In this document: in pieces, positions 1 to 22,874 of the stretch | How the letters are laid out: the number at the start of each line of letters is the position of its first letter | How positions within the stretch are numbered: position 1 is the stretch's first letter | Source of the DNA: a virus | Taxonomy: Duplodnaviria; Heunggongvirae; Uroviricota; Caudoviricetes | Length of the DNA stretch: 29,075 nucleotides | Direction: 5' to 3' (one strand) | Virus record (IMG/VR): IMGVR_UViG_2541047746_000007 | Notes under the pieces: generated by a model | Databases searched by the model: none | The model's input: only the letters and a program-made list of their open reading frames with translations | Told to the model about the DNA's origin: nothing | Program-made: the position numbers and the translations under genes

Positions 1-90
1 TTGCCTCCCCCCCGTTGATGGGTAAAATAGCCGCAATTTTTCGTTTTCAACAAGCGCGGCGCGATGCCGCTTACTCAAGAAGAAAGAATT

Positions 91-165
91 ATGACGTTGT
101 CTCCTTATTTGCAAGAGGTGGCGAAGCGCCGCACTTTTGCCATTATTTCTCACCCCAATAATTAA
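91..165 (+). pseudogene. prfC: 5' fragment of peptide chain release factor 3 gene, truncated at the prophage junction
   Basis: ATG at 91 translates [22 protein letters not shown], which I recognise as the RF3 N-terminus; instead of continuing into the GTPase P-loop (D-A-G-K-T) it reads N-N-stop (TAA 163-165). Recalled from memory, not searched. Confidence 0.6.
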
Positions 166-319
166 GCCTAAATTAAAGCTCTTTTACTTTTTCAAAGTCC
201 TTTCAGTTAATTGATGTTTGGTTTTATAAGTCATTTAAATACAGTTAGTTATGTGGCTTCTTTAATTGAAAATTCTTTCATGTAACTTTAAATCGATCAG
301 GTTGCTTTCATCAAAAATC

Positions 320-377
320 TGTACATATGCTTGTACATAATGTACAAAGCAGCAGAGGTGTTTTGCGATTTGTACAA
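320..377. promoter_or_regulatory. Cluster of TGTACA-core palindromes upstream of int, including the perfect 17-bp palindrome TTGTACATAATGTACAA (331-347)
   Basis: Three TGTACA motifs within 60 bp directly upstream of the int start; the same TTGTAC/GTACAA half-sites recur in the cI-cro intergenic operator at 6648-6666. Confidence 0.4.
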
Positions 378-385
378 GGTGAGTA

Positions 386-1621
386 ATGGCGCTGTCTGAT
401 GCGTGGTTGCGTTCAGTCGTTGGAAAGGAACGTGATAAGGTTTTGGTTAAATCCGATCGTGATGGTCTGTCTGTCAGAGTATCACCGAAAGGTCGCGTAG
501 TGTTCCAATATCGTTATCAATGGGCAGGGAAAGGTGAGCGCCTTGATATCGGAACTTACCCGGCAACTGGATTAAAAGAGGCCAGAGAAGAAGTTATCCG
601 TCTCCGTGGTGAACTCGAGTCAAGCCGCAATCCACGATTAGTCAAGCAGGCTGAAAAACGAAAAGCTACTGAAGCCATGACGGTAGAGTCTGTGATCCGT
701 GCCTGGTATGAAGCATATTGTGTAAAAAATAAAAAAGGTTCTGAACAGATACTCCGCTCGTTTGAGCTGCACCTGTTCTCTAAAATCGGGAATATCCCTC
801 ACGATGCAGCTACATTGCATGATTGGTTAGAAGTCCTGGAGCCTCTTAGCACCAAGACTCCAGCAATAGTAGACCGATTGCTAATTAACGCAAAGCAGGC
901 TCATGTCTGGGCGTATAAGAGAAAGCTCATTGAAACTCGCCCACTGTCGGATATCACGGGTAAAGATATGGATATCCGTAAAGGTCAGAAAAAACGGTTT
1001 CTGACACATGATGAAATTAACATCCTTTATGCTGCGATCGATGGTTCTCGAATGGTTCCTAAATACCGAGCCTTCATTAAACTATTGCTGCATTTTGGTT
1101 GCCGTAGTTCAGAGCTAATTACTGCTAGGGTGGATGATTTTGATTTCATAAATAAGGTATGGACTGTACCACCAGAACGACATAAGACTGGGGACATAAC
1201 AGGCGAACCGCTAAAGCGGCCCATTATTGAACCGGTTGAAGAGCTTATAAAATACGTTATCTCTATGAACAACGGTTCCGATATGCTTTTTACTAAGGAA
1301 GGAAGCAGGGAGCCAGTTGGTCGGACATCATTGCAGTCGCTGCCTTACAATTTAATGCAGTTCGCATGGCGACGTTTGGGGTATCAATTTCCTCATTGGT
1401 CTCTTCATGATTTGAGACGAACAGCACGAACAAACTTTTCTGATCTTACTGCTCCTCATATTGCTGAAATAATGCTTGGTCATAAACTGCCAGGTGTATG
1501 GCAAGTTTATGATAAGAGCGATTATCTAGAAGAACAGCGTAAAGCTTACTGGGCATGGTGGGAGAGGGTTGAATCGATCGTTACTTGTACTGACTTAATC
1601 TCCAACGGACAGTTTGCGTAG
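386..1621 (+). CDS. int: Tyrosine recombinase / phage integrase, P4-type with N-terminal arm-binding (DUF4102-like) domain
   Basis: 411-aa ORF. N-terminus (LSDAWLRS...GLSVRVSPKGRVVFQYRY...DIGTYP) fits the P4-integrase arm-binding pattern; C-terminus has HDLRRTARTNF and a downstream Tyr typical of tyrosine recombinases. RBS AAGGTGAG precedes the ATG. Sits next to the host junction. Confidence 0.9.
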   Translation: MALSDAWLRSVVGKERDKVLVKSDRDGLSVRVSPKGRVVFQYRYQWAGKGERLDIGTYPATGLKEAREEVIRLRGELESSRNPRLVKQAEKRKATEAMTVESVIRAWYEAYCVKNKKGSEQILRSFELHLFSKIGNIPHDAATLHDWLEVLEPLSTKTPAIVDRLLINAKQAHVWAYKRKLIETRPLSDITGKDMDIRKGQKKRFLTHDEINILYAAIDGSRMVPKYRAFIKLLLHFGCRSSELITARVDDFDFINKVWTVPPERHKTGDITGEPLKRPIIEPVEELIKYVISMNNGSDMLFTKEGSREPVGRTSLQSLPYNLMQFAWRRLGYQFPHWSLHDLRRTARTNFSDLTAPHIAEIMLGHKLPGVWQVYDKSDYLEEQRKAYWAWWERVESIVTCTDLISNGQFA

Positions 1622-1779
1622 CCAGAGCGTAATCATATCTGCCAGTCCGCTGCGGATACCTTGTGTACTGGGTTTTTAGCCAGACTACGTTAACCGGTAG
1701 CTTCAGTATTTGGGGTGTCGGCAGGAGTTTGATGGTTTATTGGGTTACTGTGGGACTAAGGATGTAGGGATGCCAATCG

Positions 1780-2913
1780 ATGAATTATGAAAAATATCAT
1801 AGCACAAACAGAAGCAAGGGTTTGCGAACCTTCTGCTACTTAATTTATTATGTGCAGGTGATTTTTAATGTGATGAAGTGTTTTATGACTCGCGGAAACT
1901 TTGATTTTATAAACTCTAACGTGGTTTTCTCAGAAGCCGATAAGTCATTGTGGATTGATCTCATTAACACCGATTGTATTTGGTATGATATGATAATTAA
2001 TCCTCCTGATGATATAAGAACAAATAAGATAATAAAGAACTATCTCAGAATTATGGAAAAATATACGAGGGAAAGCTGTGAAAAGAGATTTATTTATTTC
2101 TTAGGTTCAAGAAAAAAAGTGAGGTTTTCAACCAAGAAACAGCCTAGGTATAACCCATTCACAAAAAATATAGTATTCACTCTGTTGATTGGCAAAGAAG
2201 AGCGAAAGCTTCGGATAAAATATTCCTTTTGCACGTTTACGCAGAATGGGGTAGTGAAGGTAACTCCAAATGTTAGAGTAACTGAGAAGTTTCTCTACAT
2301 TGAATATGAAAATGGCAATTTATGTGTGATGTCAGTTCATGATTTCGTAAACGGACATTATATTGATTTAGGAATTCATACAGAAGTGCATTACGTAGGA
2401 TATACACGTCATCCGCATCGGCGCCCTGTTGATTTTATTCACCGTGGCTTATCAAAGATGCTGTATAGCGTTTCAAATGACGATAATGATTTTTTTGTTT
2501 GTTTTAGTATATTTAATCCAAGGATTATATCTCTGAATAATAAATGTAATGTGGTCTTTAATATTTCAAATTCTCTACTGGATGAAATTGATGTTGATAA
2601 TGAGGGGAGAATTATTGAAAACTGCTTAATACGTTACTTTGATCCTAAGCTTCAAGATGATGACAAGGAAAGTAAAAGGTCAGATTTAAATAAAATGTTT
2701 ATGGACCTGGTGGAAAATAAAAAAATTAAAAAAATATACGTTAATTTTCAATATGAAAGGAATAATGAGTATTTCTGCTTTTACTCTAAAGTTGTTCCGC
2801 CGAAATTTCATCATTTCTTTGTGTTGGATTTTTCTGATGGCAAGATAAATATTGATAGAGACCAGGATATGATGACTCAGATGGCATTGTGCATGGGGTA
2901 TTATAATTATTAA
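1780..2913 (+). CDS. Hypothetical protein, AT-rich orphan cargo gene (candidate defence/abortive-infection protein); start uncertain (alternative ATGs at 1873 and 1885)
   Basis: Long uninterrupted ORF in a region visibly much more AT-rich than the flanking phage DNA. Protein is rich in N/K/I/F/Y/D. I recognise no known motif (no Walker A, no clear nuclease or recombinase signature). Confidence 0.55.
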   Translation: MNYEKYHSTNRSKGLRTFCYLIYYVQVIFNVMKCFMTRGNFDFINSNVVFSEADKSLWIDLINTDCIWYDMIINPPDDIRTNKIIKNYLRIMEKYTRESCEKRFIYFLGSRKKVRFSTKKQPRYNPFTKNIVFTLLIGKEERKLRIKYSFCTFTQNGVVKVTPNVRVTEKFLYIEYENGNLCVMSVHDFVNGHYIDLGIHTEVHYVGYTRHPHRRPVDFIHRGLSKMLYSVSNDDNDFFVCFSIFNPRIISLNNKCNVVFNISNSLLDEIDVDNEGRIIENCLIRYFDPKLQDDDKESKRSDLNKMFMDLVENKKIKKIYVNFQYERNNEYFCFYSKVVPPKFHHFFVLDFSDGKINIDRDQDMMTQMALCMGYYNY

Positions 2914-3122
2914 TATTTCGCCTGATGCCAACTCAAAATCTTTTTTGTCGCATCCATTGTGGATTAATATTCAGAGGTAAGGGGTATCTGCGGAATTTAT
3001 ATTTTGCAGGATGAGCATACAATACATGATATAACATCTGTTTTTGGCACAGAGCATATAGTCAGATTATGTTTAGTTCTGTGCCATAGATGGATATTAT
3101 CTCACCTCTTGGCTAACTCTCA

Positions 3123-3317
3123 TTACTCAATAACTCCAGCAAATCTGTATATTTTGCGTGATGCCCATTTATTTGGGCAGGATTTAATATCAGGATCTGG
3201 AAAATCTGGCCTGTATTTCTGGCCTGTCCTCCTGTTTACGCTGTTCCAGCGAAGCACCGTCGATATTGAAACGCCACAGAATTCGGCGACTTGTTTTGTT
3301 GTCATTAAGTTGCTCAT
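3123..3317 (-). CDS. AlpA/excisionase-family helix-turn-helix protein (putative Xis or regulator)
   Basis: 64 aa; TTKQVAEFCGVSISTVLRW is an HTH_17/AlpA-type helix-turn-helix. RBS GGAGGGG lies 5 nt upstream of the ATG. It is the last gene of the leftward operon, adjacent to int. Confidence 0.6.
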   Translation of the reverse strand: MSNLMTTKQVAEFCGVSISTVLRWNSVNRRTGQKYRPDFPDPDIKSCPNKWASRKIYRFAGVIE

Positions 3318-3351
3318 TGCTACCCCTCCAGCGGTTGTTCAGTTGAAAGAC

Positions 3352-3888
3352 TCATGCGCATGTGCGTAACTCCGATAACTCGTTAAAGCGTTCCATAAAC
3401 ATCCCGTAGGCATGGCCTGGCGACAGTGGAATAACTTTGAACATCTCTGTGGCAGAGATGCCTTCCAGTACTGGCCAGAAAGAGCCATCCTCAAGCCCGA
3501 GATCGCGGCGTTCGGTTGCCAGCATGATGAGATCGGCATATTTCACGGGTGTACTCATAACCGGGGGTAACCCGTATTTCTCACGGATTACTGTGTCTAT
3601 TTTTTCTTCCATCCGTTTATAGTCAGGAAGAAAGCGTTTCAGTGGTGCGGGGATGTCCTGGCAATACGCTTCTGTTGCATCATGCATTAACGCTTCAAAA
3701 GCAAATTCCTGCGGTACCAGCTGGCTGCAAAGCACCGCATGTTGGGCGACGCTGTAGAAGTGTGAAAGATGACCGGCAAAGCGACAGATATTTGAAAGGG
3801 AAACCGCGATATCGTTAATATCGATGTCGTCTTTATTTATCCTGTCATAATAAAAATGCTTCCCGGAAAAAGTTTTAATAAATGACAT
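3352..3888 (-). CDS. yfdR: HD-domain phosphohydrolase, YfbR/YfdR-like 5'-deoxynucleotidase
   Basis: Motifs H..H (FAGHLSHF...AQHAV) and HD (ALMHDATEAYCQDIPAPLKRF) match the YfbR-type HD fold. Start moved to the ATG at 3888 (RBS GGAGAA), giving 178 aa, the length I recall for K-12 YfdR. Confidence 0.7.
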   Translation of the reverse strand: MSFIKTFSGKHFYYDRINKDDIDINDIAVSLSNICRFAGHLSHFYSVAQHAVLCSQLVPQEFAFEALMHDATEAYCQDIPAPLKRFLPDYKRMEEKIDTVIREKYGLPPVMSTPVKYADLIMLATERRDLGLEDGSFWPVLEGISATEMFKVIPLSPGHAYGMFMERFNELSELRTCA

Positions 3889-4015
3889 TTTGTTCTCCAC
3901 GTATATGCGTTGCACCGTGCTGAATTCTGGTAAAAGGAAGCCCTCACCATCTGGCGATTATTGGGTAAATTATGTTGACATAAATGCCCCCGCAGGGGCA
4001 TTTGCAGTAATGAAA

Positions 4016-4840
4016 TCAGGCGGTGAAAGTACCAATAAAGGTTTCTACTTTGCTGTCTTTGAATTTCTCAACAAGCAGATCACGAAATTCGTTAGCCATT
4101 TCTTCCTGCACCGCTTCCAGCTGAATAATGCGCAGAACCAGTACAGGACGATCGCCAGTGATAATGCTGAGGCGTAATTTAAACGGACGTTCTTTCAGAC
4201 CTTCAAACGGAACGCATTTAAATTCAAATGCCACTGGCATAATGTCTTTGGTCTTCGCTTCGACAGACTCCATCAGGGAGCGTTTGCCGCTGAAGTCATT
4301 ATCTTCAAAATCAGCGGTCTGGTTCGCTTCAATTGTGATTTTACGGATCGCCGCAGCCGCTTTGGTTGCCTGAATGGCGTCACCATTAGCATCAAAGCCC
4401 ACAAGGTAGTCGGCCCAGTCTTCAATCCATTCTGCCAGTGACTTCTGGGAGTTACGCTCGCCGTTAACAGACAACAGGGCAGAGAACGGTGCTGTCTTTT
4501 TCAGTTTGAGAGTGGCGGTGTTATCTGCGTGACCTGGTTCATCAATAGTACCCAGGTTAAGCACACTGACTGCTCGCATATTATCGGCATCAATAAAGCA
4601 GCGGGTGCCTTCATTTGCAAGATCTTTAGAATAACGGGTAAAGTCATCGATGCTGGCAGTGGAAAGCGCACCACGGAAACGGAAGCGATTTAAATTAAAT
4701 TTTTCCAGATCATGAATGCGGAAATTCTCAGGCAATGCCACAGCATCGGCACCAATCTTACTGATAATTTCATTAACACCCTGAGCAGAAATAAGGGCAT
4801 GGATTTGATTAATTGCGGTTGCGTCTAAGTTCTGAGACAT
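4016..4840 (-). CDS. yfdQ: YfdQ-like protein (DUF2303 family), function unknown
   Basis: 274-aa ORF with RBS GTGAGGA. Length and the P-Q-R gene order match the KpLE1/CPS-53 yfdP-yfdQ-yfdR arrangement as I recall it; not searched. Confidence 0.6.
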
Positions 4841-4905
4841 AATAAGTCCTCACTATATAAAGATATTCAGTGATGAGATAAATAATCAGTTTATTAAAAA
4901 CGATA

Positions 4906-5268
4906 TTAACGACCTGCTGCGCGGAGTTTTCCGTCAGGTTCACCGGCAAGAGTCAGTAATTGTCCCTGGTCTTCCTGCAGAATAGTCAGGCGACCACCGC
5001 GATTGACATACATCGGCGTTTCGGTGGTGTCTTCTTCGGAAATTTTCCCGCGGTTAGTCGGGCGAACATATGAGAGTTTGTGTTTGATTTTCACACGGTT
5101 CTCATCAAATGGTTCGATTTCCAGGTTGAGTGAGACCTTACCTTTGGTTTTCGTGTTCATCACACCTGAAGCGACTTCACTGAGAACTGCGCCGATTTTG
5201 GTTTCAAATACGCCGCCGTCCAGCTCCCCGATAAATGCCCGCACATCAGTACTGCGTTCGCTAGCCAT
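4906..5268 (-). CDS. yfdP: YfdP-like small protein, function unknown
   Basis: The track ORF (to 5454) is probably over-extended. The internal ATG at 5268 has a strong RBS (GAGGAG) and gives about 120 aa, beginning MASERSTDVRAFIGELDGG. Confidence 0.55.
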   Translation of the reverse strand: MASERSTDVRAFIGELDGGVFETKIGAVLSEVASGVMNTKTKGKVSLNLEIEPFDENRVKIKHKLSYVRPTNRGKISEEDTTETPMYVNRGGRLTILQEDQGQLLTLAGEPDGKLRAAGR

Positions 5269-5316
5269 TTTGCTGCTCCTCATCATATCGACCCTGCAAG
5301 GTCGGTTGGTTTCTCC

Positions 5317-5405
5317 ACAAAACAGAGAAGAACACCTGCGGTGGCAGCCGCCCGGATGGATTGGGTTATGAGCCCGTCGTCCGGTGATGCTCTTCTCTGT
5401 TTTGT
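5317..5405 (-). promoter_or_regulatory. Large hairpin in the early-left leader RNA (15-bp perfect stem, 59-nt loop), preceded by a boxA-like CGCTCTTTTTACA
   Basis: ACAAAACAGAGAAGA (5317-5331) is the exact reverse complement of TCTTCTCTGTTTTGT (5391-5405). On the minus strand GCTCTTTTTACAAA sits immediately 5' of the stem. Confidence 0.3.
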
Positions 5406-5413
5406 AAAAAGAG

Positions 5414-5450
5414 CGGTACCAGCCGGAAGCAAGTGTACAAACTGGTACCG
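5414..5450 (-). terminator. Hairpin plus U-run in the leader (candidate tL-type terminator or attenuator)
   Basis: 9-bp stem CGGTACCAG/CTGGTACCG with a 19-nt loop; on the minus strand it is followed by GCUCUUUUU. The loop contains another TTTGTACA motif. Confidence 0.35.
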
Positions 5451-5889
5451 CCAAAGCAGTGGCTGTTGTGGTGACCGGTGCTGATCTCCGGCTTGCGGTT
5501 ATTTCAGACTCTCACGGGTGTTTAATTGCCCCGCCGAACAGCTCTTTTCCGCAATAGCTGCAATGTCTTTCGCGCATCAGCCTGCGCATTCACCACAACG
5601 CTGAGAGCACTTAGCCAGTTACGGCACCACACTTTGTCGCGGTTCCATAAATGCCCTCATCGTTGCACCCTGGTCTCTTCCCAGGTGTCAAACCGAACCG
5701 CCACGCAGGTTAGGCGTCTTATCAGCATCATCATTGACTTGCACATTCCGGCTACCTGGTTTGTTTGTCCGAGCAAGGAGTGGATTGTCCCCTTTAACGT
5801 CCCCAGACCGCTAACGACGCATGTGCCATACGCCGTGTTACAACCAAATTTTGTTTGAATCTTGCCTGCCTCATGTTTCTTTTGGATAC

Positions 5890-5917
5890 ATTATGTATCT
5901 CATGGGTACATTGTCAA
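5890..5917 (-). promoter_or_regulatory. Candidate PL early-left promoter (TTGACA-16 nt-CATAAT), overlapped by palindrome GATACATTATGTATC (5885-5899)
   Basis: Minus-strand -35 TTGACA (5917-5912) and -10 CATAAT (5895-5890) with a 16-nt spacer; a 15-bp palindrome overlaps the -10, consistent with an OL operator. Confidence 0.45.
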
Positions 5918-5920
5918 GTA

Positions 5921-5943
5921 TAAAAAAACCTGCCGAAGCAGGT
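5921..5943 (-). terminator. Rho-independent terminator after cI
   Basis: Minus-strand hairpin ACCUGC-UUCG-GCAGGU followed by a U7 run, 14 nt beyond the cI stop. Confidence 0.65.
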
Positions 5944-5956
5944 TCATAAATATTGA

Positions 5957-6631
5957 TTAGGCCTTTATTGTGTATCTTCTTGGTTTTCCCGAGAAAATCA
6001 CTGTACCAATTATAGAGCAATTACCGTTAATCTTAATGTAAGGCTCAGGCCAGTTTGGGTTTAATGCTTTGAGATAACGCTGTGTTCCATCTTCTATCAA
6101 TCGCTTGAAGGTGGTTTCGCCTGTATCGTGCATCAATGCAATAACGTCGTCACCGTGGCAGGCAGGGACTTCGGGATCAACAAAAATCATGTCTCCAGGG
6201 CGGTACTCATCAATCATTGAATCACCAATCACCCGCAAGATATAAGTCATTTCGCCACAGGGTACAGGGCAGGGATACGTTTCTGCTGTGCTCAAATCAA
6301 CCTCAGAATAGCCAACTTCTTTCCATGCTCCGGCCTGTACCCATGATATGACAGGGACTAACGTTATTTGTTTGTTAGTGATTGAAACATCAGGTTTTTT
6401 TGTGATGTTCGTTGTCTGGTGTTCTTGATCAAGCCATCCGACAGGCAGGTCGAAACATTTTTCGATGTGCCGTGCCATGCTGTCACCGATATTTTTAGTA
6501 GCGCCATCCCCCATAAACCTGCTGGTTTGGGTTGGCTCGCGATCAATCATGGTGGCAAAGGATGAATTTCCGCCAACACCATCTCTCAGTTTTCTGGCGT
6601 TAGACCGCCGGATGTCATGGATTGTTTTCAT
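5957..6631 (-). CDS. cI: CI-type repressor (HTH_XRE N-terminal domain + S24/LexA-like peptidase C-terminal domain)
   Basis: 224 aa; N-terminal HTH region, C-terminal GDSM serine motif with a downstream lysine typical of autocleaving S24 repressors. Divergent from cro across an operator region. Confidence 0.85.
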   Translation of the reverse strand: MKTIHDIRRSNARKLRDGVGGNSSFATMIDREPTQTSRFMGDGATKNIGDSMARHIEKCFDLPVGWLDQEHQTTNITKKPDVSITNKQITLVPVISWVQAGAWKEVGYSEVDLSTAETYPCPVPCGEMTYILRVIGDSMIDEYRPGDMIFVDPEVPACHGDDVIALMHDTGETTFKRLIEDGTQRYLKALNPNWPEPYIKINGNCSIIGTVIFSGKPRRYTIKA

Positions 6632-6647
6632 AACGAAATTAAAACCT

Positions 6648-6666
6648 TTGTACCGATAAGGTACAA
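6648..6666. promoter_or_regulatory. OR operator palindrome TTGTACCGATAAGGTACAA; a second palindrome ATATGTA-N9-TACATAT (6696-6718) spans the cro RBS
   Basis: Perfect 7-bp inverted half-sites in the 90-bp cI-cro intergenic region; candidate PR -35 TTGAAG (6672-6677) and -10 TAATAT (6694-6699). Confidence 0.5.
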
Positions 6667-6721
6667 GTATCTTGAAGGTTCATTTCAATCATGTAATATG
6701 TATACCGGAGGTACATATTGT

Positions 6722-6922
6722 ATGAAAGCGTATTGGGACTCTTTAACCAAAGAACAGCAGGGCGAGTTGGCCGGAAAAGTTGGCTCAACACCTGGCTACT
6801 TACGGCTGGTTTTCAATGGTTATAAAAAAGCCAGTTTTGTGCTGGCGAAAAAACTTGAGCAATGCACGTCAGGTGCAATTACGAAATCTGACTTAAGACC
6901 GGATATCTATCCGAAAGATTAA
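6722..6922 (+). CDS. cro: Cro/YdaS-family HTH repressor
   Basis: 66 aa from the ATG at 6722 (RBS GGAGG 6706-6710). The GSTPGYLRLVFNGYKKAS...KSDLRPDIYP pattern resembles YdaS/Cro-type proteins. The track ORF start at 6617 is over-extended into the operator region. Confidence 0.8.
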   Translation: MKAYWDSLTKEQQGELAGKVGSTPGYLRLVFNGYKKASFVLAKKLEQCTSGAITKSDLRPDIYPKD

Positions 6923-6953
6923 CAGAACACCTTCAATTTTTAACCACAGAACG

Positions 6954-7517
6954 ATGAGGCTAACCGTGGGTAAGTATCACTGGAAAGTAGAAAAACAGCC
7001 TGAGTGGTACGTGAAAGCTGTCAGAAAAACTATCGCAGCGTTGCCGGGTGGTTACGCTGAAGCAGCTGACTGGCTGGATGTAACAGAGAACGCATTATTT
7101 AACCGCCTTCGTGCCGATGGCGATCAGATTTTCCCGCTGGGATGGGCAATGGTTTTACAGCGCGCGGCTGGCACTCACTACATTGCGGATGCTGTCGCAC
7201 AGTCTGCTGGTGGGGTGTTCGTATCGCTTCCTGAAATTGAGGAAGTAGAGAACGCCGATATAAACCAGCGCCTGCTGGAAGTCATCGAACAGATCGGGAA
7301 TTACTCAAAGCAGATTCGTTCGGCAATCGAAGATGGGGTCGTGGAGCCACACGAGCAGACAGCAATTAATGATGAGTTGTATCTGTCAATTTCGAAGCTC
7401 CAAGAGCATGCAGCACTGGTCTACAAAATCTTTTGCGCTCCAGAAAAGAGTGACGCCCGCGAGTGTGCAGCTCCGGGCGTCGTGGCGTTTTGTGTCTGTG
7501 GAGAAACTAACGCATGA
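6954..7517 (+). CDS. CII-like / YdaT-like early regulatory protein (assignment uncertain)
   Basis: 187-aa ORF immediately after cro; its stop overlaps the next start (ATGA). Family call is by position and vague recollection only. Alternative GTG start at 6966 has a better RBS. Confidence 0.5.
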   Translation: MRLTVGKYHWKVEKQPEWYVKAVRKTIAALPGGYAEAADWLDVTENALFNRLRADGDQIFPLGWAMVLQRAAGTHYIADAVAQSAGGVFVSLPEIEEVENADINQRLLEVIEQIGNYSKQIRSAIEDGVVEPHEQTAINDELYLSISKLQEHAALVYKIFCAPEKSDARECAAPGVVAFCVCGETNA

Positions 7518-15918: not shown

Positions 15919-15947
15919 TTGCATTTTTCAAAAAATATGGATAAAAT
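15919..15947 (+). promoter_or_regulatory. Candidate late promoter PR' (TTGCAT-17 nt-TAAAAT), probable qut region
   Basis: Promoter-like hexamers 32 nt downstream of the Q stop, followed about 50 nt later by an intrinsic terminator, as in lambda PR'-tR'. Confidence 0.45.
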
Positions 15948-15992
15948 TCTTTCAACGATGGGCTTTATATACCCGACGTTAAGAAAAAGTAG

Positions 15993-16017
15993 AAAACCCG
16001 CTGATGAGCGGGTTTTT
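15993..16017 (+). terminator. Rho-independent terminator (tR'-like)
   Basis: AAAA-CCCGCT-GATG-AGCGGG-TTTTT: 6-bp GC-rich stem, 4-nt loop, U-run. Confidence 0.7.
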
Positions 16018-16302
16018 GTGCTTTAAATAGGGTAATAGAGATGTTGAATCTCATTCCGGGATTCATGTTTGTTTACTTATTATTTATCGGGTGACTTTGC
16101 CTGATGTTTAAAATGTTTTCTTCCAGTGCTATGTCCCTAGATACAATGAGTCTGCATATTACATTATTAGCAGAGCTATTACGGTCAAAGTACAGCATAA
16201 GCTTTTAAAGCCAATCAACCAGTCATCAAGACAGACGGGGTTATTCATGAAAACTCTCCATGTTTGATTCGATGGGGCCTGAAATTAAAGCTTTAATATA
16301 GC

Positions 16303-16515
16303 TCATGAAAGGTAAACATTGGCAGCTGAAGGGCCACGCAGACCATTTATCCGGCAAAATTCCACGCGTAATCCGGTGGTAATTTCTTCTGCATCGCGGA
16401 GATTGAGCGCTGAAACATGAAGCTGGACATCGATACGACCATCGGATGGGGTGATAAGACCCTTGCCGCTTTTGCCGTCAAAGGTTTTGACAATTCCTGT
16501 CATTTTACGGGACAA
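16303..16515 (-). CDS. cspF: Cold-shock-domain protein, CspF/CspH-like
   Basis: 70 aa beginning [26 protein letters not shown] and ending [16 protein letters not shown] start with RBS AAGGAA. Divergent partner of the cspB-like gene. Confidence 0.75.
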
Positions 16516-16815
16516 AAAAATTCCTTAATACTGATAACTGGGCGCACTATACACACGTTCCTGAAGAAAGCTATAGTTTTTTGATGGGGTTGAAGATGGC
16601 TGGATGTCTAAAATAAACATTGCTTCATATGTTCAACTATGCGTTAATGATTGCGTCGGTTTGAAGAACAGACGATATACGAAGTAGTTTACTAAAGCAG
16701 TTCTCATTTCAGGTGTTATTCACTTATTCCTTCTTTGAGTCTCTCCAATTAAGTACGAAGTCGTTTCTGTTATACAAGCCATTTATGCCGAAAGGCTCAA
16801 GTTAAGGAATGTAGA

Positions 16816-17031
16816 ATGTCAAATAAAATGACTGGTTTAGTAAAATGGTTTAACGCTGATAAAGGTTTTGGCTTTATTTCTCCTGTTGATGGTAGTAAAG
16901 ATGTGTTTGTGCATTTTTCTGCGATTCAGAATGATAATTTTCGAACCTTATTTGAAGGTCAAAAGGTTACCTTCTCTGTAGAGAGTGGTGCTAAAGGTCC
17001 TGCAGCAGCAAATGTCATAATTACTGATTAA
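16816..17031 (+). CDS. cspB: Cold-shock protein, CspB-like
   Basis: 71 aa; [38 protein letters not shown] carries the RNP1/RNP2 motifs of CspA-family proteins. RBS AAGGAA. Confidence 0.8.
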
Positions 17032-17312
17032 AATTCATAGTTTGTCTGTATACGATAACGAAGAAGGCTGATGCCTGAGTGGAGATACAGACAGAGTGGT
17101 GAATATTGGATCTCTTTAATAAATAGTAAGGAGGTCCAATACATGAAACAATGGCCAGCATATTTGGCAATAACTTAATCAGGAAAAGTATGCTAACCAT
17201 TGTGGTGAAGTGCAGGTTTGCTGCATGAATAGTTTTACAGCAGAAGCTAACTGCTGGCATAGCAAAACAAAGTGCGTAAGTGGATGACTCCCACAAAAAG
17301 TACCACAATATT

Positions 17313-17337
17313 AAACCCGCTCAGGCGGGTTTTTTAT
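17313..17337 (+). terminator. Rho-independent terminator, possibly bidirectional
   Basis: AAA-CCCGC-TCAG-GCGGG-TTTTTT downstream of cspB, in the gap before the convergent minus-strand zinc-ribbon gene. Confidence 0.75.
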
Positions 17338-17394
17338 TATCTGCTTTAAATATGTTATTAAAATATAAAAAATACTTGTTACGAATAAAATCAA

Positions 17395-17565
17395 TCAAGC
17401 TACAGCTTTAAGATTTGTCTGGAATACTTTGTTGCAATGAGGGCAGATCAAAAGGGCACCTTTTTGTACTCTTGAAAAACTGTGTTCTGACTCTTGGGTG
17501 CAGTTTGGGCAGGAACATTTAACGAGATAATTACGGCGTGATTTTGAGTCTTTACGTTCTGACAT
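17395..17565 (-). CDS. Small zinc-ribbon protein (Cys4, Com-like architecture), function unknown
   Basis: ATG at 17565 with RBS AGGAAAA; 56 aa with CSCPNC...(18 residues)...CPHC. The track ORF (to 17616) is over-extended. Confidence 0.5.
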   Translation of the reverse strand: MSERKDSKSRRNYLVKCSCPNCTQESEHSFSRVQKGALLICPHCNKVFQTNLKAVA

Positions 17566-17783
17566 AGGCTTTTCCTGTATAAATGGCCGTATACAGTACA
17601 CTAAATATGAAAACATATCTCGTATTATTATTTAATATATGATTTTCTTTTAAAATAATTACCCACATTTTTAATGTGTCTGTTTTTTAGCGCCGTTGAG
17701 AACAACGTTTGCTATAAAAACTAACCCATAGACTCCGATCTTTTCAAACATATTGCACCATCTGTGTACATCGGGGTGAGGAT

Positions 17784-17999
17784 ATGAAATCAATGGATAA
17801 GTTAACAACAGGTATCGCCTATGGCACATCGGCTGGTAATGCTGGTTTCTGGGCATTGCAGTTACTCGATAAAGTAACTCCGTCACAGTGGGCTGCAATC
17901 GGTGTGCTGGGTAGTCTGGTTTTTGGCCTGCTGACGTATCTGACAAACCTTTATTTCAAGATTAAAGAAGACAGGCGTAAGGTTGCGAGAAGAGAGTAA
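17784..17999 (+). CDS. Class II holin (EssQ/EssD / phage-21 S-like), dual-start motif
   Basis: 71 aa; [26 protein letters not shown] with two predicted transmembrane segments and a charged C-terminal tail. M1-K-S-M4 dual start as in holin/antiholin pairs. RBS GGGGTGAGGA. Confidence 0.85.
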
Positions 18000-18003
18000 T
18001 CCA

Positions 18004-18555
18004 ATGACACAAGACTATGAACTGGTTGTGAAAGGAGTCCGCAATTTTGAGAATAAAGTGGCGGTAACTGTAGCCTTACGGGACAAAAAACGCTTTGACG
18101 GTGAAATTTTTGACCTGGACATCTCGCTGGACCGTGTTGAAGGTGCCGCGCTGGAGTTTTATGAGGCAGCAGCCAGAATGAGAATCAGACAGGTATTCCT
18201 GGATGTTGCTGCCGGGTTATGTGTAGGGGATGAGCAGTCGCCGGAAAAGCGCCCCATAATTTTAGAGGCGCAGAATGTGTGGATAACCTACAAAGGAAAG
18301 CTACCGGGAAGAATTACTGGTTCTCTGAAGACGCCACCGACGGCATTGCGGTCAGAAAAAGATGATATTGAATCGCCCATTGAAAAACTGGAGGGCAGCG
18401 TCGCTGATCTGAATAAAAAATTGTCGGTGCTGATCCCTTCTGAAGATGAAAAAAAACGCCGCGATGAGCAGTTTGCGGCGTTTTACGATTATTGCATTGA
18501 AGTTACTCGCAGGAATTTTGTGAAGATTTTTGAGGAGGGTAAATCTCTTCAGTAA
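18004..18555 (+). CDS. Hypothetical protein in the lysis cassette
   Basis: ATG at 18004 immediately after the holin stop; 183 aa, acidic and coiled-coil-like. Lies between holin and endolysin, where Qin carries ydfR as I recall. Confidence 0.5.
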   Translation: MTQDYELVVKGVRNFENKVAVTVALRDKKRFDGEIFDLDISLDRVEGAALEFYEAAARMRIRQVFLDVAAGLCVGDEQSPEKRPIILEAQNVWITYKGKLPGRITGSLKTPPTALRSEKDDIESPIEKLEGSVADLNKKLSVLIPSEDEKKRRDEQFAAFYDYCIEVTRRNFVKIFEEGKSLQ

Positions 18556-18763
18556 GCTTAATGGCGGACGCTGCAATTAATTCAGGAAGGTCCGCAAGGT
18601 CATCTGTCAGTGGATATGATGAAAAATCGGCGGCAGTTCTGTTAAGAAGCGCTTTAACTAATTCCTTTTCCTTCTCCGGCAACAAGTTGATTAGAGCTAC
18701 GACTGCTTGCCTGAGTGCGATTAAATCAGCAAAAGTTTGTTTTGGTAGATTTGTGTAATCCAT
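18503..18763 (-). CDS. Hypothetical acidic protein encoded antisense within the lysis cassette
   Basis: 86 aa from the ATG at 18763 with RBS GAGGTG. Helical-looking protein with atypical codon usage (GC3 about 40%). Its 3' end overlaps the upstream plus-strand gene by 53 nt. Confidence 0.35.
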   Translation of the reverse strand: MDYTNLPKQTFADLIALRQAVVALINLLPEKEKELVKALLNRTAADFSSYPLTDDLADLPELIAASAIKLTEEIYPPQKSSQNSCE

Positions 18764-18876
18764 AGTCACCTCTGTGTTTATCAGATTGACATCCTCCTCC
18801 CGCCAGTGCCCATCACTGGTGAGGTAAGATTTAACATATCCGGGGATTTGAAGCCGATAAATCCTGATAAATATCC

Positions 18877-19904
<1,028 letters not shown>

Positions 19905-20267
19905 ATTAATATTAAATCGGATTATTTTTAGCGCTGAATGTGAAATTTAAATAAAAAGGACTCTTCCATGAGTCAAAATCCTTGAAATCTTAAGGGTAAG
20001 ATAAAAGGTCATTAGACAGAATGACACGTTTTATTAATAAATAAAGCTATTGTTTCATTCGTGTGTTTTTCTTTACAAAAGTAATCCTTGCTATGGTTGG
20101 TTAATCATGCGTTAATGGTGTTCTGGTTTGTTACAAAATTATCTGAAGCAGTCATTGTTATAATTTTATTATTTGTACCTCTTGAGATTTCCTTGTTGGT
20201 TTTTCTCTCTGATATTTTTTTTCGGACCATTCTGCCCAAGGGCTAACTTCTTCAAAAGGTAATAATG

Positions 20268-20480
20268 ATGTCTAACAAAATGACTGGTTTAGTGAAATGG
20301 TTTAACCCTGAAAAAGGTTTTGGTTTCATCACGCCGAAAGATGGTAGCAAAGATGTGTTTGTGCATTTCTCAGCTATTCAGAGCAACGATTTCAAAACGT
20401 TAACTGAGAATCAGGAAGTCGAATTTGGTATTGAGAACGGACCTAAAGGCCCTGCAGCTGTTCATGTAGTGGCACTTTGA
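20268..20480 (+). CDS. cspI: Cold-shock protein CspI-like
   Basis: 70 aa; [42 protein letters not shown]...[13 protein letters not shown]. Long AT-rich 5' leader upstream, typical of csp genes. Confidence 0.85.
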
Positions 20481-20685
20481 GGTAGAAAATATTACAAACC
20501 ATATTCACTTTAGATGCCCGTGTTGCCATGGTTCTCAGTATAGAACATCATCTTTTGATGTTTCTGACAGAAATCCTTTCGGGGCAAAATGTATCTTTTG
20601 TAAATCAATGATGATTACATTTGATAATATTTCACAATACTTAAATGTTAGCCATCTGTCGTTAGATTTAAGAAAGTGAAAATGA

Positions 20686-20707
20686 AGGCTCCTTCGGGAG
20701 CTTTTTT
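20686..20707 (+). terminator. Rho-independent terminator downstream of cspI
   Basis: GGCTCC-TTCG-GGAGC followed by TTTTTT. Confidence 0.6.
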
Positions 20708-20751
20708 GCTTAGTGTCTAGTCGATGGATACTCACATATTACGGTAACATT

Positions 20752-20982
20752 ATGAAAAAAATAATAGTTTTTTTTAACTCTGAACCAGCAATGGTAGTGC
20801 CAGTGATGACCGGAGTTAACACCATCATGCGTGAATATCCAAATGGCGAAACAACACACCTCACTGTAATGGCTGCAGGGTTTCCATCTCTGACCGGAGA
20901 TCATAAAGTCATTTATGTAGCAGCGGATCGACATGTAACTTCAGAAGAAATTCTGGAAGCAGCAATGAGACTCTTGAATTGA
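20752..20982 (+). CDS. Hypothetical small protein (moron)
   Basis: 76 aa from the ATG at 20752 (MKKIIVFFNSEPAMVVPVMTG...); weak RBS. Sits between cspI and gnsB, where Qin carries ynfN as I recall. Confidence 0.45.
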   Translation: MKKIIVFFNSEPAMVVPVMTGVNTIMREYPNGETTHLTVMAAGFPSLTGDHKVIYVAADRHVTSEEILEAAMRLLN

Positions 20983-21154
20983 TTTGATTCTAATGCATTG
21001 ATAATAAATGATAATCATCTTTATCTGTTTGTGTGAAATTTAGACCGTCGTATGTTGATTATTGCGATGTTTCATCTTATCTTTTATACGTTTGCTCCAT
21101 ATAATTGACACTACTGTGTACCAGGACAGTCATAACAGACTAAAAGAGGAAATG

Positions 21155-21328
21155 ATGAACATTGAAGAGTTAAAAACAAAAACAGAAGCAGATATTTCTG
21201 AATATATAACAAAAAAAATCATTGAGCTTAAGAAAAAGACCGGGAAAGAAGTTACCAGTATCCAGTTTACTGCACGGGAAAAAATGACTGGTCTTGAAAG
21301 CTATGATATCAAGATTGATTTAATCTAG
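21155..21328 (+). CDS. gnsB: GnsA/GnsB-family protein
   Basis: 57 aa; MNIEELKTKTEADISEYITKKIIELKKKTGKEVTSIQFTAREKMTGLESYDIKIDLI matches the GnsA/GnsB sequence as I recall it. RBS AAGAGGA. Confidence 0.75.
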   Translation: MNIEELKTKTEADISEYITKKIIELKKKTGKEVTSIQFTAREKMTGLESYDIKIDLI

Positions 21329-21623
21329 CATGTTTATAGTATTAGCATCAATTTCTCATCAGATGCTATTCAACAATACAAATTACCCATAAACCTCGTT
21401 TTTACGGGGTTTTGTTATATTTAAACATTACCGAATAGATATAAATCTCGATTGTCAATGGTATTGGTTGTGTGACAATACCTAGTCTTTCCGGTATGCC
21501 TGAAGAGAATACAAACGACAGATTATGTAAGGGAAACGCGCTGAAACTTTCACTCTTTCATGCTGAGTGATTTGACGTTATATTTTTAGCCGCAAGTGAA
21601 GAGCAAACGAATGGAGCGACAAA

Positions 21624-21830
21624 ATGCATAAAGATCAATACACTGATGCCCCCTCCCAGGAGCAGGTTCGTGTAAAAACTATGCTTAATAGCACCATTTC
21701 GATGGGTTACCCGGATGTTGTAATTGCATGTATAGAACATCAAGTATCTCTGGAAGCATTCAGGGCAATTGAGGCCGCGTTAGTAAAGCACGATAAGAAT
21801 ACGAAGGATTATTCCCTGGTGGTTGACTGA
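21624..21830 (+). CDS. Hypothetical small protein
   Basis: 68 aa with RBS GGAG 8 nt upstream of the ATG. No recognised motif. Confidence 0.45.
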
Positions 21831-22195
21831 TCACCATAACTGCTAACCATTCTGACCATTTCACAAGTGACAGAGTCAATATCGTATTCTGTCACTGTAA
21901 GGCTAATACAGTACTGCAATTCAACTACAGCAATGCCTCGTATTTAGGTGAATTTACAATATCGTCCAGTTCGGATGCCGGCTGCATTTCTGAAGATAAG
22001 GCATTTCGGTTCGCGTATTTTCCCCTCATGCTCGTCAGTCCTGCGCGTAGTAAGAAACAGGACACTCACACTAATTTGTGTGGGCATGCTGTGATGTCCT
22101 TCTGAATTATCCCCATGCCATTATGTAACGCTCTGTTTCAGATGCTCGTCACGGTTGTCAGGCTGTCGGGTCCTCCCAGTGGGGGTCCCTGCCAC

Positions 22196-22213
22196 GGGGC
22201 GGGAGCGTCGCGG
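22196..22213. other. Candidate cos site (cosN-like GGGGCGGGAGCGTCGCGG)
   Basis: Closely resembles the lambda left-end sequence GGGCGGCGACCTCGCGGG; lies about 170 bp upstream of the small terminase gene with A/T-rich flanks. Confidence 0.4.
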
Positions 22214-22382
22214 AAAAAGGCTAGTTTTTGCATTTTTATCGGCCACCATCATCTTTGCATCTTATTGATTATTAATGGTTGTTTGTTTTTTGTATGTCGA
22301 ATTGAGTGTTTTTTGTTCGACATCGAACGCGTTTTCTTAAAGTTGTTCGCACGATGCATGTTTAAAGCTCTCCGGAGGAAAT

Positions 22383-22874
22383 ATGGATCATGAGTTGAAA
22401 AACCTGGTGCTGAATATTAATCAACTGGCGGCTTTATCTGGTCTGCACCGCCAGACTGTCGTGGCAAGACTGAAAAACATTCGTCCCGCTGGTGGACATG
22501 ACAAACTCAAGCTATACCGGTTGACCGATATTCTGACTGAATTTATGGGGTTACCACCGCCGGTTGCTGAGGGCGAAATGGATCCACATGAACGCAAAGC
22601 CTGGTATCAGTCTGAACGTGAGCGTCTTAAGTTCGAACAGGAAACGGCACAACTCATTCCGGCCAGTGATGTCAGACGGGAGTTTGCCATCTGGGCAAAA
22701 GCGGTCGTGCAGGTGCTGGAGACATTACCGGATATTCTGGAACGTGACTGCGGCCTGCAGCCTGCCGCTGTGAGCCGTGTTCAGTCCATTATTGATGATC
22801 TGCGCGATCAGATAGCCCTGCGGGTGACCGAAGCAGGTGCGGATGATGAGGAGGAATTACAGCAGGAGGAGTAA
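22383..22874 (+). CDS. Terminase small subunit (Nu1-like, N-terminal HTH)
   Basis: 163 aa; N-terminal LNINQLAALSGLHRQTVVARLKN helix-turn-helix, acidic C-terminus. Stop overlaps the large-terminase start (TAATG). RBS GGAGG. Confidence 0.75.
   Translation: MDHELKNLVLNINQLAALSGLHRQTVVARLKNIRPAGGHDKLKLYRLTDILTEFMGLPPPVAEGEMDPHERKAWYQSERERLKFEQETAQLIPASDVRREFAIWAKAVVQVLETLPDILERDCGLQPAAVSRVQSIIDDLRDQIALRVTEAGADDEEELQQEE

Follow-up and report, generated by a model that had tools for sequence, protein, structure and literature searches.

What occupies the AT-rich DNA between the lysis genes and the packaging site of a lambdoid phage, and does it serve the phage or its host? The question is raised by a 29,075-nucleotide stretch of caudoviricete DNA (IMG/VR record IMGVR_UViG_2541047746_000007; 'the window' denotes this whole stretch), whose interval 19905–22195 opens one base after the stop codon of the DUF2514/Rz gene (19407–19904) and closes at a lambda-like cosN cut between 22196 and 22197. 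This interval very probably holds a Qin-type cold-shock moron block, of the kind found in lambdoid coliphages, with a lambda-type right end attached; the block comprises three self-contained units that would be transcribed while the prophage is repressed. What is established here is the identity of the genes, their architecture, their conservation and the selection on them. An initial annotation of the same DNA had described about 2.3 kb of AT-rich sequence with a long csp-type 5′ leader, a CspI-like gene, a GnsB-like gene and two unassigned small open reading frames (ORFs), and had read it as a Qin-like accessory block. All of these elements lie between Rz and cos; on the content, Pfam and Rfam agree with the ORF listing and with what RefSeq annotates on the identical stretch of Escherichia coli S88. 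Searches upheld the gene identities, the point on which the annotation had staked itself; the two small ORFs are ynfN (phrog_3425) and a homologue of ybcW (phrog_657). Overlooked were a YmcF/YnfQ-family ORF that starts with ATT and a remnant of ynfR. Every feature, from the promoter to the ybcW homologue, is on the plus strand.

Composition and homology both revise the extent of the block. Guanine–cytosine (GC) content is 37.5% for the interval, lower than that of the lysis cassette (47%) and of the terminase genes (54%), yet only 19905–21465 is truly AT-rich (34% GC), with 21466–22196 at 45%. By blastn, 19907–21465 is about 91% identical to K-12 Qin and to phage Tritos, and lambda-type sequence then takes over, with 85% identity to Tritos over 21457–22196 and 81% to the lambda-like phage 4W over 21457–21975. 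Because homology turns lambda-type from 21457, the Qin-like accessory block measures only 1.56 kb rather than 2.3 kb, and the last 0.7 kb or so, from ybcW to cos (81% identical to lambda), is backbone. The synteny proposed with Qin (ydfO-gnsB-ynfN-cspI) stands for cspI, ynfN and gnsB, which keep the Qin order, and fails for ydfO: homology stops at 21465, and at the joint, where Tritos, lambda and K-12 have a DUF1398 gene (ybcV/ydfO) on the minus strand, no such gene is present. In Tritos the two flanks of this gene share a short similar sequence, and it is there that the window switches from one flank to the other; such shared sequence would permit ybcV/ydfO to be lost or gained by recombination. 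A 7-bp inverted repeat, ATTGTCA-N14-TGACAAT (21451–21479), sits exactly on the Qin/lambda joint. A repeat search for the mark of a mobile cassette found no direct or inverted repeats flanking the block.

Over its whole length the interval shows 100% identity with an E. coli S88 prophage (NC_011742.1) and 99.9% with the isolated phages HannyBb and mEp460_ev081. Matches to it occur in 2649 of 5426 complete E. coli genomes, 1045 of them with at least 80% coverage. Functional phages do retain the block, with isolated or induced examples in HannyBb, mEp460_ev081, 2H10, Tritos, PhiR63_1 and PhiR42_1. The csp–gns part is found in only 7 of the 41 matching phage records; lambda and many of its relatives have no cold-shock block and carry bor/ybcV at that place instead. 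The block has structural features by which a moron, in the Hendrix/Juhala sense, is recognized: it is extra DNA between the backbone genes Rz and ybcW, differently filled in lambda-type phages, with a cspA-type promoter and two terminators of its own and a GC content of 34% against 47% and 54% (Table 1).

The first unit is built around cspI. Its promoter was missed by a consensus scan (7 sites, against 8.9 expected from shuffled sequence) and was detected only through alignment with csp paralogues, in which the TTGCT of the −35 element and the extended −10 element TGCGTTAAT are invariant across the upstream regions of K-12 cspI, the window's own cspB and K-12 cspG. By analogy with cspA, we predict that this site is a cspA-type cspI promoter. 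The annotated csp-type leader is matched by the Rfam cspA thermoregulator (RF01766) at 20110–20526 with 110.1 bits against a gathering score of 78, a match to be read with the caveat that the model extends over the coding region as well. The hairpin box GCC-AAgGGC and the start region ATGTCTAACAAAATGACT are conserved in the paralogue alignment, and cspI, both here and in K-12, is 13 nt shorter in the cold-box segment than cspB and cspG. A length of 145 nt for the cspI untranslated region was reportedly given by Wang et al. in 1999. A permissive Rfam search of 19700–22500 added only a chance-level match to Atu_C8 (E 0.85). An ORF of 52 amino acids at 20088–20246, annotated in HannyBb, falls within the leader and was rejected as a gene. 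The product of cspI itself shares RefSeq accession WP_000066495.1 with K-12 CspI and is thus the identical protein, a single cold-shock domain, as in the CspA/B/G/I subgroup, in which RNP1 (KGFGFI) and RNP2 (VFVHF) are both evident. Its closest curated family matches include the CspA and CspE RNA chaperone/antiterminator models.

Directly behind cspI lies the ATT-initiated ORF. Its start is 10 nt past the cspI stop codon and its Shine-Dalgarno sequence, GAGG, overlaps that stop (the stop and the ATT span 20478–20493); the ORF listing offers no ATG, GTG or TTG start able to give the conserved amino-terminal half. The product carries the zinc-ribbon-like cysteines CPCC...CIFC, and is identical at 58 of 62 positions to the K-12 Qin copy and at 43 of 62 to K-12 YmcF, both of which keep ATT. 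A length of about 62 residues, two CxxC pairs, a position directly 3′ of a cold-inducible csp and a non-AUG start place it in the YmcF/YnfQ family. The AUU start of YmcF/YnfQ is said to have been described by D'Lima et al. in 2017. The deposited HannyBb annotation lacks this gene and calls the leader ORF of 52 residues and an antisense minus-strand ORF instead, an example of how small genes with non-AUG starts are lost in automated phage annotation. That minus-strand ORF (20535–20735) is antisense to ynfQ and was rejected as a gene. The gene list gains, in the ATT-initiated ORF, a small gene that escapes ORF finders and some phage annotations. The unit ends, within the truncated ynfR, at an intrinsic terminator whose RNA fold reaches −14.8 kcal/mol (z-score −2.5).

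The unusual start codon can be followed beyond this phage. A scan for the small ORF, with one genome taken per species, gave 80 loci in Enterobacteriaceae. Wherever an intact csp ends 9–10 nt upstream, the start codon is ATT (46 loci) or ATC (4), that is, in 50 of 50 as a raw count that ignores kinship, and in these loci the csp stop overlaps a TAAGG or TGAGG Shine-Dalgarno sequence of the small ORF. Lineages whose upstream csp is lost or damaged mostly use ATG: Klebsiella and Raoultella, in which csp is a 3′ remnant; Enterobacter, Leclercia and Silvania, which have no csp; and Citrobacter sedlakii, in which the 3′ end of csp is altered. Pseudescherichia is without csp, yet retains ATT behind a mini-ORF of eight codons. 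The pattern suggests that the small ORF may be coupled to translation of csp by termination and reinitiation, and the first description of the YmcF/YnfQ proteins may imply as much already. This co-variation of the non-AUG start with an intact upstream csp, a side observation, is perhaps worth a look. Rz or a lysozyme gene lies within 3 kb upstream in 8 of the 80 loci. These belong to Escherichia/Shigella and to three species of Citrobacter, and each has ynfN and gns on its downstream side; the order Rz-csp-ynfQ-ynfN-gns is shared by the three Citrobacter species. A bolder proposal can be built on these data, in which csp-ynfQ is a coupled unit whose AUU or AUC start is served by ribosomes re-initiating 10 nt after a heavily translated csp, and which phages would have captured with ynfN and gnsB as a module for growth in the cold that also aids lytic late-gene expression at low temperature. 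Taken as a whole, we consider that proposal rather unlikely.

The second unit, ynfN, is intact here. Six residues of its product (M1, K3, V6, F7, F8 and N9, in the amino-terminal strand MKKxxVFFN) show no variation among homologues with identities as low as 51%, and the 76-residue protein is therefore the conserved form and the true product; the 51-residue K-12 reference form is a remnant left by a 1-bp deletion and frameshift. YnfN has a confident predicted fold for which no informative match was found in the PDB, and PDB sequence searches gave no meaningful match for either YnfN or YbcW. No NCBIfam model matched YnfN, GnsB, YbcW or the DUF1441 protein. The third unit, gnsB, has a perfect TATAAT at 21100–21105, the Shine-Dalgarno sequence AGAGGA upstream and a terminator behind it. 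GnsB, assigned as GnsB-like from the outset, is identical to the K-12 protein at 53 of 57 positions (93%) and matches the GnsA structure sequence (PDB 4XO2) at 7.9e-20.

Beyond the joint, the lambda-type end comprises the ybcW homologue and cos. The encoded protein is identical at 54 of 68 positions to YbcW of phage 4W; the gene bears the name ybcW in O157 genomes. At cosN, the 12-nt end GGGCGGGAGCGT replaces GGGCGGCGACCT of lambda, within identical flanks (ACG up to the cut, and CGCGG); the sequence reads GGGTCCTCCCAGTGGGGGTCCCTGCCACG before the cut and GGGCGGGAGCGTCGCGG after it, against GGGTCCTTTCCGGTGATCCGACAGGTTACG and GGGCGGCGACCTCGCGG in lambda. The Tritos genome record ends precisely at window position 22196.

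Table 1. Features of the interval between Rz and cos, in window coordinates.
Feature	Position	Strand	Description
cspI promoter (predicted)	20088–20116	+	−35 TTGCT(A) 20088–20093; extended −10 TGCGTTAAT 20108–20116
cspI 5′ leader	about 20123–20267 (about 145 nt)	+	cspA thermoregulator type; start point approximate, deduced
cspI	20268–20480	+	70 amino acids; cold-shock domain, Pfam CSD 1.7e-31 over residues 6–70
YmcF/YnfQ-family 'cold shock small protein' ORF	20491–20679	+	62 codons, ATT start; RefSeq annotation of identical S88 sequence
ynfR remnant	20682–20720	+	12 codons (MKAPSGAFLLSV, then stop); marked 'too short' in S88; K-12 protein 21 amino acids
Intrinsic terminator 1, end of cspI-ynfQ unit	20684–20710	+	GGCUCC-UUCG-GGAGCU then U6
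ynfN	20752–20982	+	full length, 76 amino acids; phrog_3425 1e-55
gnsB	21155–21328	+	57 amino acids; GnsA/GnsB family, Pfam PF08178 (GnsAB_toxin) 2.1e-33, positions 1–54 of 54
Intrinsic terminator 2, after gnsB	21391–21416	+	terminator scan; RNA fold −11 kcal/mol, z-score −2.0
Mosaic joint	21457–21465		Qin-type homology stops, lambda-type starts
ybcW homologue	21624–21830	+	68 amino acids; lambda right-end gene, phrog_657 4.6e-48
cos	22169–22208		cosQ-like GGGTCCT..., then cosN; cut after 22196; 12-nt end GGGCGGGAGCGT at 22197–22208

Selection was assessed by counting changes against K-12 (cspI, the ynfQ-like ORF and gnsB), Tritos (ynfN) or the lambda-type sequence (ybcW), with a Fisher test. 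cspI differs by 8 synonymous and 0 non-synonymous changes (ratio of non-synonymous to synonymous rates, dN/dS, 0; p 1.8e-6). The corresponding counts are 4.5 and 4.5 for the ynfQ-like ORF (dN/dS 0.23, p 0.048), 7 and 5 for ynfN (0.21, p 0.009), 6 and 5 for gnsB (0.18, p 0.008) and 10 and 15 for ybcW (0.36, p 0.019). An excess of synonymous change, and hence purifying selection, is visible in every ORF; the counts are small and point in the same direction throughout. The suggestion that the block is kept for host-beneficial stress functions is borne out to the extent that purifying selection acts on all ORFs; the host benefit itself is deduced from work on K-12 (PMC7406224).

That work and related studies describe near-identical copies. 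K-12 cspI is induced on temperature downshift (Wang et al. 1999, as cited in PMC7406224); cspB, cspF and cspI reach their highest levels in long-term stationary phase, and when competed over that phase a cspI knockout loses to the wild type (PMC7406224). K-12 cspI, ynfQ and ynfN are induced together, with similar LexA and SspA dependence (PMC11228462), which fits partial read-through of terminator 1. YnfR, encoded between cspI and ynfN, is cold-induced, and its K-12 sequence has been given (PMC6001520). RNA sequencing of a Tritos lysogen placed CspI 93-fold, CspB 59-fold and YnfN 27-fold over the prophage background, and the authors named them morons (PMC9928086). Lysogen transcription, cold induction and a stationary-phase phenotype are thus known for these copies and would, by analogy, extend to the phage examined here.

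Under the moron reading, the first unit would run from a cspA-family promoter through a long thermosensing leader, cspI and, on the same mRNA, the ATT-initiated zinc-ribbon protein to a strong terminator; ynfN would form the second unit, and gnsB, with its own −10 element, Shine-Dalgarno sequence and terminator, the third, all inside the stretch of the late operon that separates Rz from cos. Their transcription in a lysogen would not depend on the phage repressor. Low temperature and late stationary phase would be the conditions in which the cspI mRNA is stabilized and translated, CspI would act as a chaperone of RNA and single-stranded DNA, and abundant GnsB, like GnsA, would alter membrane lipid composition; a modest stress advantage to the lysogen would then account for purifying selection on the block. 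Lipid effects of Gns overproduction were reportedly described by Sugai et al. in 2001.

Several points weigh against this account. The evidence on expression and fitness all comes from other copies (K-12 and Tritos), and ynfR is truncated here, so not all elements are maintained. Redundancy among the Csp paralogues of E. coli is high, and the benefit of one added copy may be small. The Tritos data come from 37 °C LB cultures, not from cold shock (PMC9928086). With YnfN lacking a recognizable fold and YbcW a match by sequence to a solved structure, part of the block is without a mechanism. Finally, since the block lies within the late operon, it should be expressed in lytic growth too and could serve the phage.

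The last point leads to the strongest rival, according to which CspI, together with the CspB of another island, acts as an RNA chaperone or antiterminator for late genes, lysis and packaging at low temperature, for example outside the gut. The block lies between Rz and cos on the late-gene strand, in the Q-antiterminated transcript; the other csp island lies between Q and the holin gene; plaque-forming or inducible phages retain the block; and CspI matches the CspA/CspE chaperone/antiterminator models. We nonetheless judge it improbable that the phage is the beneficiary. The block has a promoter and terminators of its own and is strongly transcribed in uninduced Tritos lysogens (PMC9928086), defective Qin prophages incapable of lytic growth keep cspI intact with zero non-synonymous change, and lambda and many relatives manage without it.

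A further alternative takes the Pfam and NCBI family name, 'GnsA/GnsB toxin / addiction module toxin', at its word and makes GnsB the toxin of an addiction or abortive-infection module that stabilizes the prophage or excludes other phages. In its favour, ymcE-gnsA is given among the type II toxin–antitoxin pairs of E. coli as one that inhibits phospholipid synthesis (PMC8484670). The test for a partner failed here: the block contains no YmcE-like ORF, and the gene in the corresponding position, ynfN, encodes a protein with no relation to YmcE (local alignment score 21 over 6 residues). The gap between ynfN and gnsB is 172 nt, against an 11-nt overlap of ymcE and gnsA, and across the 80 loci ymcE was present beside the family only where the locus is the chromosomal one of cspG type (9 cases). 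PADLOC returned nothing for GnsB, YnfN, YnfQ or YbcW and only a generic CSD_V match for CspI (3e-15) without retron components, and a defence-system reading was dropped on that ground. Because no YmcE-type partner is present, the toxin label is unsupported in the phage context, and an addiction role is highly improbable. That the block is selectively neutral cargo, hitch-hiking by recombination among lambdoid phages, is scarcely credible: the region is mosaic, with a joint at 21457–21465, variable presence of ybcV/ydfO, IS4 and ynfR, and a frameshifted ynfN in K-12, but the selection data count against it, with five ORFs intact and dN/dS of 0–0.36 (8 synonymous against 0 non-synonymous changes in cspI), and the csp-ynfQ arrangement is conserved across genera, including its 10-nt spacer.

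The cold-shock moron block is therefore left as the favoured account. It is real but ordinary and, being already known, carries little weight as a discovery: RefSeq annotates each of its genes, the K-12 Qin copy has been described, and the Tritos copy has been reported under the name of morons. The gain lies in the corrections made above to its extent, to its gene list, to the length of YnfN and to the toxin label of GnsB.

Other parts of the window drew our attention in passing. An earlier accessory island at 15888–17783, between Q and the holin gene, has the gene order of K-12 Qin, with cspF (minus strand, 16303–16515), cspB (plus, 16816–17031) and ynfU, encoding a small zinc-binding protein (minus, 17395–17565); cspB comes with a stronger cspA-thermoregulator match (16655–17094, 156 bits). 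A ydfR-like ORF 3′ of the holin gene (17983–18769 region) encodes 190 amino acids, against 103 in K-12; the prophage of S88, nearly identical here, has it marked as an incomplete pseudogene, HannyBb and Tritos have a normal ydfR of 312 nt, and a minus-strand ORF of 86–88 amino acids (18503–18769) overlaps its end. Likeness to S88 (99%) begins only at 13552. The integrase-to-replication part, 1–13551, is a different mosaic, which none of the complete E. coli genomes searched has in one piece (best coverage 86%, at 96.7% identity). It includes, by Rfam, an isrK Hfq-binding RNA (7874–7950, 55 bits) followed directly by a C4 antisense RNA (7975–8062, 83 bits), which together, at 7874–8062, form an antisense immunity element of P1/P7 type beside Rha/ant-like genes.

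Four known systems bracket the block. K-12 Qin shares the order and strand of rrrQ-rzpQ-cspI-ynfQ-ynfR-ynfN-gnsB directly after Rz, along with the promoter, the leader and both terminators; its ynfN is frameshifted and its ynfR has 21 codons, against a 76-residue YnfN and 12 codons here, and Qin continues into ydfO-ynfO-nohA where the phage continues into ybcW, a lambda-type cos and intact terminase genes. Tritos, prophage 3 of E. coli LF82, has both csp islands, the lysis cassette, the series cspI-small ORF-ynfN-gnsB-ybcW-cos and the same cos position; it differs in carrying ybcV (DUF1398, on the minus strand) within an insert of 588 bp that separates gnsB from ybcW, and its K-12-type block is about 91% identical. 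The chromosomal cspH/cspG-ymcF-ymcE-gnsA arrangement likewise places an ATT-initiated CxxC small ORF 10 nt after csp and then gns, the cspG-ymcF-ymcE-gnsA paralogue having 74% nucleotide identity over csp and the small ORF and 73% over gns; its middle gene is ymcE, a reported antitoxin in a non-phage context, where the phage has ynfR and ynfN, unrelated to ymcE. The lambda right end (Rz-bor-ybcV-ybcW-cos) matches in the ybcW region (81% nucleotide identity) and in the type of cosQ/cosN and their position relative to ybcW, with bor and ybcV in place of the cold-shock block and a 12-nt cohesive end that differs at 4 positions.

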